A stretch of DNA of 56,176 bases, the filler included, from Sphacelaria rigidula (Eukaryota): assembly GCA_964200075.2 (NCBI GenBank). It is 7 parts of 7 records of this genome, joined end to end, with 100 filler letters (N's around TTAATTAATTAA, not from the genome) between each part and the next. Parts side by side here need not be neighbours in the genome. Positions count along the whole stretch, not along the records: positions 16,082 to 24,020 come from CAXNAA020012907.1; 6 more parts are not named here. The stretch is one strand, 5' to 3'. Shown one piece after another: positions 20,514 to 22,186 of the stretch. Numbering within the stretch: position 1 is the first letter of the stretch; every line of letters starts with the position of its first letter. The notes below the pieces were generated by a model that had not been told where the DNA came from, did not search any database, and worked only from the letters and a program-made list of their open reading frames with translations. Made by a program: the position numbers and the translations under genes.

Positions 20514-22186
20514 GATGACGGGTTGTGGTACCCAGCGCAGATAACCGCGGTCAACACCAGTACCGTCGAGACTGCCCCCAGTGCATTGTCAGCATCATCG
20601 GAAGCATCGCCAAAAGATGACACCAACCGAAGCAGCAATGAAACCTTGTCATGCGACATGACGCGGCAAAGTGTCGAGATTGCTCAGACGGACGAGACGG
20701 TCAGCACTGCTTCCGCCAGTACTGTCACATTCTTGGACGTGATATTTTTAGGATACGGTAACACGGCGACTGTACCAGTCAGTTGGGTCAAGGACCTGTC
20801 GTCTCCGGAGGTTGTGCAGTGGTGTCGAGAAAACCTGCCCGACGAAGACGAAACTGAAGCCCCTGTTCTCTCGGTGGATGGAAATTTGTTGTCAACCGAG
20901 CTGTTGATAGCCGGCTCGAGTGATGTGAGCACAGCATCGGCAGATTCACCGAGCGAGGTCAAACATAATGGGGCAGGTGACAAGGTCAAGACCGTGAAAA
21001 GCCAAAACCGAAATAAGCAGCCGGGAGACGAGAACGACAGCAGCAAGAAGAACAAAAACAACAATAACAGCAGCAGCAGCAAGAAAAAAGGCAAAAACAA
21101 GAAAAAGAACAACGGCAAGGGGTCCAGACAAGGTGGAGGGGGGAAAGGCGTCAAAAAGAAACCTGATGGTTTAGGCTTCATGGAACTGGACGAAAAATCG
21201 GTACGGCAGTGGGGTACACGATCGCGCAGCCCCTACCCTCACGTGCCCAGCAAGTACTGGGGGCAAAGATACCGCTATTTTTCCAGGTTTGATGACGGTG
21301 TGACCATGGACAAGGAAGGGTGGTACTCGGTCACTCCAGAGGCGATTGCGCGGCATATCGCGGAACGAGTGTGCTCTGATATTGTGGTGGACCCTTTTGT
21401 GGGATGTGGGGGAAACGCTGTGCAGTTCGCCTTAGTTTCGCATCTGGTCATCGCAATCGACCTTGATCCCGTCAAGCTCGAGCATGCTAGGTGAGTTGCC
21501 ACAAAGGCCTCGTGCGCTACAGTTGTGATCCGCGTGCACCAGTGCGGGCGGCGTGATGCATCTACTTTATTGTAGTGGAATGTCCTGGATCTTGCGGAAG
21601 TGCTGGCAGCGAGCACACGCCGAGATCACTGGCGCATAACGCTGTCCTGTACAGGTTTCAATGCATTTGTCCCTCAAAGTGTGCTGGTGTCTTGTATTTG
21701 CACTGCCGCCAGCTTCAGCAGTTGTCGTGATTCTCTCGCGTAGGGCCACAAGTGGTGTGAGTAACTTCGTAGCCCTGTGATGAGGGCAAGGGGTAAGCAC
21801 TAGCTTTACGATTGCTGCCGCTGTCGTGACATGAACACTTCTGTGAATCTTTTTCATTAAAACCATTCGCTGTCACACTGATCGTCCCATGCGCTACCCG
21901 TGCCCCTGGACGCTTCACTATCCAAAGACGCAACGCGGCCGTATACGGGGTGGAAAACCGCATCGAGTTCATCCTGGGGGACGCAATGAAGATATTGCCC
22001 ACACTTCAAGCAGACACAGTTTTCCTTTCCCCACCGTGGGGCGGCCCATCTTACCAAGGCACTAAGACCTTCGATCTTCACAGCATGATACCGGCGCCGC
22101 TCACAGCTGTCGATATATTTCGTAAGGCGCGAGAGGTGACGCCTAACGTGGTCTTTTTCCTTCCTAGGAACGTTGACGTGGAGCAG
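20514..22186 (+). CDS. TGS1: Trimethylguanosine synthase (RNA cap guanine-N2 methyltransferase) with N-terminal Tudor-like domain, partial
   Basis: Exons 20514-21490 (after ctaac...cag) and 21928-22186, phase compatible. Motifs [47 protein letters not shown] (SAM binding), [36 protein letters not shown]. First and last exons not resolved. Confidence 0.95.

Follow-up and report, generated by a model that had tools for sequence, protein, structure and literature searches.

Trimethylguanosine synthase (TGS1) has to confine its activity to snRNAs on which an Sm core is already in place. SMN works as a free assembly chaperone and contains Gemin2-binding and YG-box regions, and the aromatic cage of its Tudor domain comprises residues that we take to be W102, Y109, Y127, Y130, and N132. 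The third cage position is Tyr in SMN and Phe in SPF30 and TDRD3, and TDRD3 is a reader of asymmetric dimethyl-arginine. PMC7289441 reports that TGS1 binds SMN and SmB and attributes the choice of Sm-core-bearing snRNAs by TGS1, in animals and yeast, to contacts with SmB and SMN in trans; the same paper describes snoRNAs as further TGS1 substrates and an association of TGS1 with snoRNP core proteins. PMC11529804 places Tgs1 among the SMN partners recovered by AP-MS in the fly. No paper describing a Tudor-TGS1 fusion was found in our literature search. We present here a TGS1 gene of the brown alga Sphacelaria rigidula in which a split Tudor domain and the enzyme share an open reading frame.

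The window, meaning the whole stretch of DNA analyzed, is 56,176 nucleotides long and was joined, with filler, from seven parts of assembly GCA_964200075.2; the locus lies in the part taken from CAXNAA020012907.1 (positions 16,082 to 24,020). Analysis of the window revealed two exons, both internal, of a brown-algal TGS1 gene. PF09445 is matched at 28.5 bits by residues 290-324 of the first of these exons and at 83.8 bits by the next (Pfam cut-off, 22). The translation contains both V.D.F.G.GGN, which we take to be the SAM-binding motif I, and SPPWGGP, presumably the catalytic motif, and both are invariant among the homologues. Yeast Tgs1, human TGS1/PIMT, and fly dTgs1 share PF09445 and the two motifs with this gene, and canonical TGS1 also shares the extension KYW.QRY..FS.FD.G...D.EGW.SVTPE. 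The product of 21219-21490 is 100% identical to a 182-residue NCBI protein from S. rigidula.

The exon at 20514-21490 (+) is one open frame that runs in order through a Tudor half, an insert, a second Tudor half, a helix, a K/N-rich tract, and the start of the TGS1 catalytic region; the frame is open from 20496 to 21494. The features are listed in Table 1. A first-pass annotation had proposed that an SMN-type Tudor domain, split by a Ser/Thr-rich insertion of about 55 residues, lies in frame on the same exon as TGS1, with a basic tract parting reader from enzyme. Translation of 20514-21488 (+) returns the sequence quoted there. The insert has 57 residues (S, 13; T, 10; A, 7; S+T, 40%), about 55 beyond the four-residue loop of unsplit relatives, and the K/N/G-rich tract (nt 20994-21179) does lie between the Tudor reader and the TGS1 enzyme. 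Every aligned brown-algal row has a basic tract of comparable composition, and the putative role of the tract is nuclear or nucleolar targeting. In deposited brown-algal models the split Tudor is unannotated, and the partial NCBI model at this locus (P0033) omits the Tudor part altogether.

Table 1. Features of the S. rigidula Tudor-TGS1 locus, in window positions.
Feature	Positions	Strand	Evidence
3′ splice acceptor CAG	20511-20513	+	sequence (CAACACAG, then GAT)
Tudor strand 2 half, residues 1-13	20514-20552	+	translation, AF2, conservation
Ser/Thr/Ala-rich insert, 57 residues, between strands 2 and 3	20553-20723	+	translation, pLDDT, conservation
Tudor strands 3-5, residues 71-95; F78, Y81, N83 at cage positions	20724-20798	+	AF2, alignment
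Post-barrel conserved helix, 12 residues	20799-20834	+	AF2, conservation
Acidic/Ser-rich linker, poorly conserved	20835-20993	+	D+E 21%, identity 0.19
K/N/G-rich basic tract, 62 residues	20994-21179	+	K+R 31%, N 18%
TGS1 N-terminal, cap-binding extension and SAM-binding motif (...AIDLDP)	21219-21490	+	PF09445, identity 0.88
GT..AG intron, 437 nt	21491-21927	+	contig joint, splice-site sequence
Next TGS1 catalytic exon (FLSPPWGGP...LPRNVDVEQ), GT donor at 22187	21928-22186	+	PF09445, RNA-like contig

An intron ending at the acceptor divides this exon from a missing strand-1 exon, and in read-through ORFs of other brown algae Q (CAG) stands directly before DDG. A 3,008-nt RNA-like contig (X1, X2, X8) begins to match the window at 20513, its own position 504, spans 20513-21488, joins 21488 to 21926 over a GT..AG gap, covers the next catalytic exon, and runs 1,266 nt past 22188. 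Its first 503 nt and last 1,266 nt have no place within 16082-24020. In the mapping of read contigs, positions 21034-21121, inside the basic tract, were left out as repeat-like. The joint 21488>21926 (cut +2) occurs in contigs from X1, X2, and X8, and DNA run X5 lacks it; no listed run is recorded as RNA, the figures for X1 and X8 are identical and may come from one data set, and the RNA status of the three runs is our guess from this GT..AG joint lacking in the DNA run and from nothing else. The first-pass annotation had asked whether 20514-20800 is spliced into TGS1 mRNA; spliced RNA-like contigs span the whole exon and reach the next catalytic exon. P0033 begins downstream of the Tudor part. 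This start, and the lack of a start codon or upstream exon among the window's sequences, would suit a reading in which the Tudor-like stretch is 5′ UTR or a chance intron-like ORF extension and the enzyme starts near the first residue of the NCBI model. That reading is extremely improbable: the stretch is conserved at the protein level, with a clear domain pattern, in brown algae and Phaeothamnion, full-length annotated Ectocarpus and Scytosiphon models include it, the RNA-like contig reaches 503 nt upstream and matches from exactly the acceptor, and the fold is confidently predicted in the Ectocarpus model. The Tudor-TGS1 fusion is very probably real and expressed.

The window yielded no start codon and no upstream exon. 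The strand-1, N-terminal, and last catalytic exons, the last of these including the C-terminal ...K.K....YFG strand, gave no credible window match with tblastn using the Ectocarpus, Scytosiphon, and Phaeothamnion models or with six-frame regex searches, and local HMMs of the N- and C-terminal regions gave none against all ORF pieces of the window. An ATG exon at 20246-20353 was considered as the upstream exon and rejected, as it has no strand-1 pattern, homology, or RNA cover. The exon had been described as the start of the Tudor domain, which does not hold, since strand 1 (e.g., FVPGSVVECFHP) precedes DDGLWYP in the full-length Ectocarpus and Scytosiphon models. The window exon carries strands 2-5 only; strand 1 and the first cage residue are on an upstream exon.

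The fold was predicted with AF2. The window's 119 residues give three strands and a helix with a core pLDDT of 82-91 (strand at residues 8-16, block pLDDT 76-82; strands 71-78 and 84-88, pLDDT ~90; helix 98-107), and the insert block, at pLDDT 46-53, is predicted to be a disordered loop. This model, which lacks strand 1, matches royal-family domains at Z 3.6-4.1 (SMN, Z 3.6; TDRD3, Z 3.8), with chromo, PWWP, and SAWADEE domains tied at Z 4.1. The Ectocarpus orthologue, modeled with strand 1, is predicted to form five strands (core pLDDT, 90-95) followed by a helix at 172-180, and VIA-align places this model on TDRD3 at Z 9.8 (rmsd 2.0, 60/60 aligned) and on SMN at Z 8.4 (rmsd 1.5, 58/58 aligned). 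Foldseek gave a TM of 0.86 normalized to TDRD3 for the Ectocarpus model; its E-values against the PDB were not significant for the window's own model or the Ectocarpus model (1.2 and 0.36). The fold prediction called for earlier is borne out by the five-stranded barrel of the Ectocarpus orthologue and remains weak for the window's own model (Z at most 4.1): in these predictions the Tudor fold is seen directly in the former and partly in the latter.

The window exon drew no match from Pfam Tudor (PF06003/PF00567) with E allowed as high as 10, and neither Ectocarpus nor Phaeothamnion gave one; Scytosiphon gave E 0.084, for the first half only. This miss is due to the 57-residue insert and concerns detection, not fold; the locus is a case in point of how a long loop insert can hide a domain from Pfam. 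When split-only and unsplit-only alignments were compared with hhalign, the probability was 95.4% (E 1.7e-8) over strands 1-2. An hhalign value of 99.3%, from a mixed versus an unsplit alignment, was dropped as circular, the mixed alignment including the unsplit proteins. The Tudor signature read from the two motifs in the first-pass annotation stands, with the split motifs aligning with unsplit Tudor-TGS1 and the Ectocarpus model matching TDRD3 and SMN. These results support the two motifs as halves of one SMN/SPF30/TDRD3-type Tudor barrel with an insert between strands 2 and 3.

The human SMN Tudor (1MHN, 4A4E, 4QQ6, 1G5V) has the five-stranded barrel in common with Tudor-TGS1 and shares the pattern G..C.A...DG..YPA.I ... 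V.Y/F.GYGN. The two differ in the loop between strands 2 and 3 (4 residues in SMN versus at least 57 in split Tudor-TGS1), in the third cage residue (Tyr in SMN, Phe in Sphacelaria), and in setting, SMN carrying its Tudor on a free protein and Sphacelaria fused to an enzyme. The TDRD3 Tudor (5YJ8, 3PMT, 3PNW) is the best structural match but a weak one by sequence. Neither TDRD3 nor SPF30/SMNDC1 (4A4F) is fused to a methyltransferase, and both are without the loop insert and the following helix.

Both Tudor halves, or the C half, are carried by 33 brown-algal exon ORFs and 5 gene models. Compared with the window, 22 homologous exon ORFs have an identity of 0.80 over the N half, 0.55 over the C half, 0.15 over the insert, 0.59 over the post-barrel helix, 0.19 over the linker, and 0.88 over the TGS1 extension; 12 of the 22 ORFs reach the N half, and 10 start after it. 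In 24 aligned rows F78, G80, G82, and W91 are invariant, and Y81, N83, and the helix residues P98, E99, W103, and C104 are conserved in at least 90%. The strand-2 W and Y are invariant both in the split-only alignment and in the alignment of split and unsplit forms, over which W25, Y26, G154, and G156 (alignment numbering) do not vary. This pattern of conservation shows that the Tudor halves exceed chance. The helix belongs to the brown-algal and Phaeothamnion form only. Insert length varies by species, from 57 to ~155 residues in the split form, with much longer inserts in Ectocarpus and Scytosiphon and none in unsplit relatives.

Eight unsplit protist Tudor-TGS1 proteins were found (P0072, P0088, P0214, P0215, P0038, P0108, P0127, and P0129), and the fusion is peculiar neither to the Sphacelaria genome nor to the split form. 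As in Sphacelaria, the Tudor precedes TGS1, and the unsplit proteins can be aligned on both flanks of the Sphacelaria insert; window strands 3-5 align to V.RY.GYGN..LP.CW. They differ in having no insert, no post-barrel helix, and Tyr at the first cage position, and their basic tract lies before the Tudor, not after it as in the brown-algal form. Only P0072 (27.1 versus 23), P0127 (23.7 versus 23), and P0215 (23.4 versus 22.7) exceed the cut-off of Pfam TUDOR or SMN_Tudor. The unsplit profile against the PDB best matched the Tudor of SMN (E 1.2e-6), SND1, TDRD1, and SPF30 (E 3.2e-4), with TDRD3 at E 0.08. A quick tree placed the unsplit and brown-algal catalytic domains on the same side (SH-aLRT 85, unstarred), a placement with which a single stramenopile origin followed by losses would be compatible. 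When the unsplit Tudor profile was run against a representative library, the best 150 of 1,157 matches were almost all giant multi-Tudor proteins, the single-domain matches among them being only P0088, P0214, P0215, and a 73-residue fragment, so that this search leaves the spread of the fusion unmapped. Pfam found nothing on the conserved N-terminus of thraustochytrid-type TGS1 proteins. The TGS1 clusters in the ESM Atlas are listed without a Tudor family and are uninformative here.

The statement that fungal, animal, and plant TGS1 proteins lack a Tudor agrees with the listed yeast-like fungal, animal, and plant proteins, in which no Pfam Tudor was found; in precomputed annotation PF00567 occurs in 1 of 213 listed TGS1 proteins. 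Plant TGS1 (P0192 and P0193; Mesostigma P0212) likewise has a small N-terminal peptide-reader module, but this is a WW domain (PF00397), with a fold other than Tudor and presumably another ligand. Canonical TGS1 is linked to Sm cores in trans, whereas Sphacelaria TGS1 carries its own Tudor.

By alignment to SMN (HMMER), the cage of the window barrel comprises Y6, F78, Y81, and N83, with Y6 opposite the second cage tyrosine of SMN. The first position is His in four brown-algal models (three Ectocarpus, one Scytosiphon), Phe in Phaeothamnion, and Tyr in four unsplit proteins. Conservation of the cage among orthologues, on which the earlier proposal depended, is found for the equivalents of Y6, F78, Y81, and N83; at the first position Ectocarpales have His in place of Trp, Tyr, or Phe. 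From these alignments the barrel probably keeps an aromatic cage. A loop of 57 to ~155 residues adjoining the cage could hinder ligand access.

Our preferred explanation, that these are exons of a brown-algal TGS1 whose split Tudor docks the enzyme on Sm cores, has a somewhat better than even chance of being right as a whole, and methyl-arginine reading of Sm tails as the role of the Tudor falls a little short of even. The Tudor cage on TGS1 would dock on the dimethyl-arginine tails of Sm cores that have already assembled. Cap hypermethylation would then come after Sm-core assembly, and the enzyme would need no separate adaptor to reach its targets. The insert would represent an expanded loop that is tolerated, and the basic tract may steer nuclear or nucleolar localization.

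The Tudor could instead be functional mainly as a localization or client-selection module for methyl-arginine proteins other than Sm tails, such as coilin-like Cajal-body scaffolds, LSm4, or asymmetrically methylated snoRNP GAR proteins (fibrillarin, GAR1), sending TGS1 to Cajal bodies, nucleoli, or snoRNA substrates. By structure the asymmetric reader TDRD3 matches best (Z 9.8), F78 occupies the third cage position as Phe does in SPF30 and TDRD3 in place of the Tyr of SMN, and the K/N-rich tract adjoins the domain. The action of TGS1 on snoRNAs and its association with snoRNP core proteins, as described in PMC7289441, point the same way, but the partners in trans named there are SMN and SmB. 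The unsplit relatives are closest by sequence to the SMN Tudor (E 1.2e-6 versus 0.08 for TDRD3), and no client was identified. We consider this reading unlikely.

Still less probable is a barrel that survives as a structural relic, folding without methyl-arginine reading and serving as a spacer or as an interface unrelated to methylation. Reading would have been lost because of the His at a cage position, as in the three Ectocarpus models and the one from Scytosiphon, and the long loop beside the cage; the loss of GYGN in several unsplit relatives (P0038, YLGYEE; P0127, FVGYEA; P0129, LLGYEK) and the position of the split form below the Pfam threshold are in keeping with this. Against it, the equivalents of Y6, F78, Y81, and N83 are conserved, W25, Y26, G154, and G156 stay the same in split and unsplit rows alike, and the identity of the halves is 3-5 times that of the flanking linkers, which fits selection beyond fold stability and is no proof of it.

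In a bolder form of the docking explanation, which we regard as a long shot, brown algae and related ochrophytes would have built the methyl-arginine reading of SMN into TGS1, with free SMN reduced or lost and the insert and helix acting as a regulated gate that, e.g., via Ser/Thr phosphorylation, would time the engagement of Sm cores by the enzyme. If this is true, Sm-core assembly and cap hypermethylation would here be coupled in a natural "minimal" form. An enzyme with its own SMN-like barrel would be natural "fusion" evidence for methyl-arginine reading and cap hypermethylation being parts of one step. With a single protein and a single domain to mutate, it would also be a simple setting in which to test the coupling of the two. 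The practical gain is an improved annotation of brown-algal TGS1 and a defined construct for binding studies.

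The plus strand holds an open frame at 20496-21494 in which two Tudor motifs flank a Ser/Thr-rich insert and run in frame into TGS1 on a single exon, as the first-pass annotation had proposed. Translation confirms this arrangement, as do matches to PF09445 (RNA cap guanine-N2 methyltransferase; Pfam, cut-off 22) of 28.5 bits at exon residues 290-324 and 83.8 bits in the open reading frame (ORF) holding the next exon. A K/N-rich tract does separate reader and enzyme. Relative to unsplit Tudor-TGS1 relatives, the insert is a surplus of about 55 residues in the alignment. Features are listed in the table.

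Features of the Tudor-TGS1 locus, with SMN cage equivalents (HMMER alignment to SMN and alignment A3, of split and unsplit Tudor-TGS1 proteins; exon-product numbering) and mean identity of homologous exon ORFs (22 rows) to the window
Feature	Position	Strand	Basis or content	Mean identity
3′ acceptor CAG	20511-20513	+	sequence	
Tudor/catalytic exon	20514-21490	+	RNA-like contigs, splice sites	
Tudor N half	residues 1-13, from nt 20514	+	translation	0.80 (only 12/22 rows extend there)
Insert, 57 residues	residues 14-70, nt 20553-20723	+	13 Ser, 10 Thr, 7 Ala	0.15
Tudor C half	residues 71-95	+	translation	0.55
12-residue segment	directly after residues 71-95	+	translation	
Helix after barrel				0.59
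Linker, acidic, Ser-rich	between 12-residue segment and basic tract	+	translation	0.19
Basic tract, 62 residues	nt 20994-21179	+	K+R 31%, N 18%	0.26
TGS1 catalytic start, 88 residues	3′ of basic tract	+	same frame	0.88 (catalytic part)
Intron, GT..AG, 437 nt	21491-21927	+	RNA-like contig joint	
Next exon	21928-22186	+	RNA-like contigs, splice sites	
SMN W102 equivalent	on missing exon		His in 4 Ectocarpales models, Phe in Phaeothamnion, Tyr in 4 unsplit proteins	
SMN Y109 equivalent	Y6			
SMN Y127 equivalent	F78			
SMN Y130 equivalent	Y81			
SMN N132 equivalent	N83			
N blocks	7942-8041, 15982-16081, 24021-24120, 32060-32159, 40099-40198, 48138-48237		44 N + 12 bases + 44 N	

Sequencing runs X1, X2 and X8 were classed as RNA by an automated guess; no listed run is on record as RNA. 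X1 and X2 were separate samples in a single study, and X1 and X8, with identical figures, may be one data set. Each contains a 3008-nt contig that matches 20513-21488 (repeat-like, low-complexity 21034-21121 left out of matching) and resumes at 21926-22188, spanning 437 nt with GT..AG ends. The exon and intron limits were set from this joint and the splice sites. A contig of DNA run X5 is continuous over 19495-22857, without the 21488/21926 joint. The stretch first annotated as Tudor (20514-20800) is thus covered by RNA-like contigs and spliced into the next TGS1 exon; the Tudor-like and catalytic parts sit on one spliced RNA. A rival but very unlikely reading holds that the Tudor-like stretch is untranslated. 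A 182-residue Sphacelaria rigidula NCBI protein ("unnamed protein product, partial"), 100% identical to the catalytic part, has its first residue downstream of the Tudor-like part. This identity points to a brown alga, most probably S. rigidula, as the source of the window.

The 3008-nt contig also carries 503 nt 5′ of the exon and 1266 nt past 22188, neither placed in 16082-24020, and searches of the whole 56-kb window found none of the gene's further upstream or downstream exons. Very long introns, or a break in the assembly around the locus, may explain this. The N blocks recur once per 8040 bases, and two 10-N gaps lie at 13232-13241 and 31520-31529. In the protein database, the contig of the Sphacelaria TGS1 fragment has a length of 7939, precisely the distance separating two of the blocks; the window may have been cut or masked at regular steps, possibly the reason that the other exons are missing. 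An ATG-started 36-codon ORF (20246-20353, +) ends at a GTGCGA that would be in phase with the Tudor exon; it was rejected, with no homology, strand-1 pattern or RNA-contig cover; it is probably intronic noise. Contig depth is very high in DNA and RNA-like runs at 16082-16346, 17407-17936, 18202-18466, 19262-19526 and 22177-23500, with many odd joints. These stretches resemble mobile elements or dispersed repeats that fill the intron 5′ of the Tudor exon and the sequence 3′ of the second exon. A 41-nt tandem repeat lies at 19257-19358.

Pfam made no Tudor call on the window exon, Ectocarpus or Phaeothamnion, and matched SMN_Tudor in Scytosiphon at E 0.084 over the first half only. The same motifs occur without the insert in protist TGS1 proteins P0072, P0088, P0214 and P0215, as in AVGSLCQAYYQPDGAWYPVRVLKSNKREEYQVRYEGYGNIEVLPACWLRD, and are likewise uninterrupted in P0038, P0108, P0127 and P0129. 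TUDOR or SMN_Tudor scores 27.1 in P0072 and 23.7 in P0127 (cut-off 23) and 23.4 in P0215 (cut-off 22.7), and is the top, sub-threshold Pfam match in P0038, P0088, P0108 and P0214. In the MAFFT alignment, the brown-algal insert coincides exactly with the strand 2-3 junction of the unsplit proteins, and W25, Y26, V150, G154, G156, P162 and W165 are invariant across split and unsplit rows. By hhalign, the split-only and unsplit alignments match over 24 columns of strands 1-2 (95.4% probability, E 1.7e-8). A profile of four unsplit domains retrieved 47 PDB sequences at E <= 1, led by the SMN Tudor (1MHN, E 1.2e-6) and followed by SND1, TDRD1 and SPF30 (3.2e-4), with TDRD3 at 0.08.

Structure prediction bore out the proposed Tudor fold in an orthologue, but the window's own model is weak. 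For window residues 1-119, lacking strand 1, AF2 gives strands 8-16, 71-78 and 84-88 and helix 98-107, with pLDDT of 76-82 in strand 2, 82-91 from strand 3 to the helix and 46-53 in the insert. Its VIA-align matches to solved structures are all Tudor, chromo, PWWP or SAWADEE-type, weak alone at Z <= 4.1 (SMN Z 3.6, 29% identity; TDRD3 Z 3.8, 32% identity), and Foldseek found nothing significant among solved structures. A 190-residue Ectocarpus part that includes strand 1 is modelled with strands 14-19, 24-34, 147-152, 158-162 and 166-168 and helix 172-180, at core pLDDT 90-95. It aligns with TDRD3 (Z 9.8, rmsd 2.0, 60/60 aligned) and SMN (Z 8.4, rmsd 1.5, 58/58); nearly all of its top 50 VIA-align matches are Tudor and other "royal" superfamily reader domains, and Foldseek gives E 0.36 and TM 0.86 normalised to TDRD3. 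The two motifs are therefore predicted to be halves of a single SMN/TDRD3-type barrel whose strand 2-3 loop holds the insert.

With the SMN cage numbering taken to be W102, Y109, Y127, Y130 and N132, the window carries three of the four cage residues plus the Asn. SPF30 and TDRD3 also have Phe at the Y127 position. Putative methyl-arginine reading is suggested by, among other evidence, the conserved cage pattern and the closeness in sequence to SMN. Alternatively, the barrel could read other methyl-arginine proteins, or its cage could have decayed; F78, G80, G82 and W91 are invariant in a 24-row alignment, and conservation reaches 90% or more at V76, Y81, N83, V87, P88, P98, E99, W103 and C104.

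Searching with the exon translation gave 166 proteins at E <= 0.001. Among the best 120, the top 33, the Sphacelaria entry aside, are ORFs on short contigs that all end at the ...LEHAR exon boundary. A second search, for longer homologues (93 proteins at E <= 1e-10), gave full models from Ectocarpus (three, 795-800 residues), Scytosiphon (610) and Phaeothamnion (827), the last belonging to a sister class of brown algae. All five have a strand-1 segment immediately N-terminal to D(D)G.WYP and halves parted by an insert, which in Ectocarpus and Scytosiphon visibly exceeds the window's in length. Residues 1-45 of the brown-algal full-length models P0121-P0124 hold a conserved NLTHS.AYLTDKPYDVQLGVLRW.RGL segment, absent from the window; its LT..[AS][FY]..D core recurs at unrelated TGS1 N-termini (P0072, P0215, P0216 and P0218), as does an MGLP..F motif. 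The Phaeothamnion confervicola TGS1 (P0141), whose deposited model is truncated at the C-terminus, has a Gly-rich insertion of about 170 residues within the methyltransferase domain, between motif I and the ..D.D.. strand. It may be a genuine low-complexity insert or an intron left in the model.

A motif scan of TGS1 proteins among 220 retrieved gave 48 rows, 3 of them false; the others are 33 brown-algal exon ORFs, 5 split gene models and 7 unsplit proteins, to which P0129 was added by eye. Known TGS1 proteins of yeast, animals and plants were said to lack a Tudor domain, and no Pfam Tudor occurs in the listed fungal, animal and plant proteins; the plant ones carry WW. Searches of the representative library and Atlas added nothing on how far the fusion spreads. 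No description of the fusion was found in the openly accessible full-text literature; for P0072, at least, a precomputed table already lists the two Pfam families together. Of 61 rows chosen for a quick tree of catalytic domains, 55 were used and 6, without the anchoring motif, were omitted. All 10 Tudor-bearing rows lie on one 23-row side, with labyrinthulomycete rows (SH-aLRT 85, unstarred), and the Tudor label changes 4 times versus 9.4 in shuffles (0/500 as low). This suggests that the fusion arose once within stramenopile-like lineages, with later losses or incomplete models accounting for its absences. Residues ~1-60 of the Hondaea fermentalgiana TGS1 proteins P0093 and P0103 hold a segment, VLLRCD.P.R..L.DG..LEGVVLTLDPETALVY.L, conserved in thraustochytrid-type TGS1. 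By eye it has a possible Sm/LSm-like strand pattern; Pfam found nothing there at E <= 0.1. If real, this segment would give stramenopile TGS1 a second type of fused module with a link to snRNPs.
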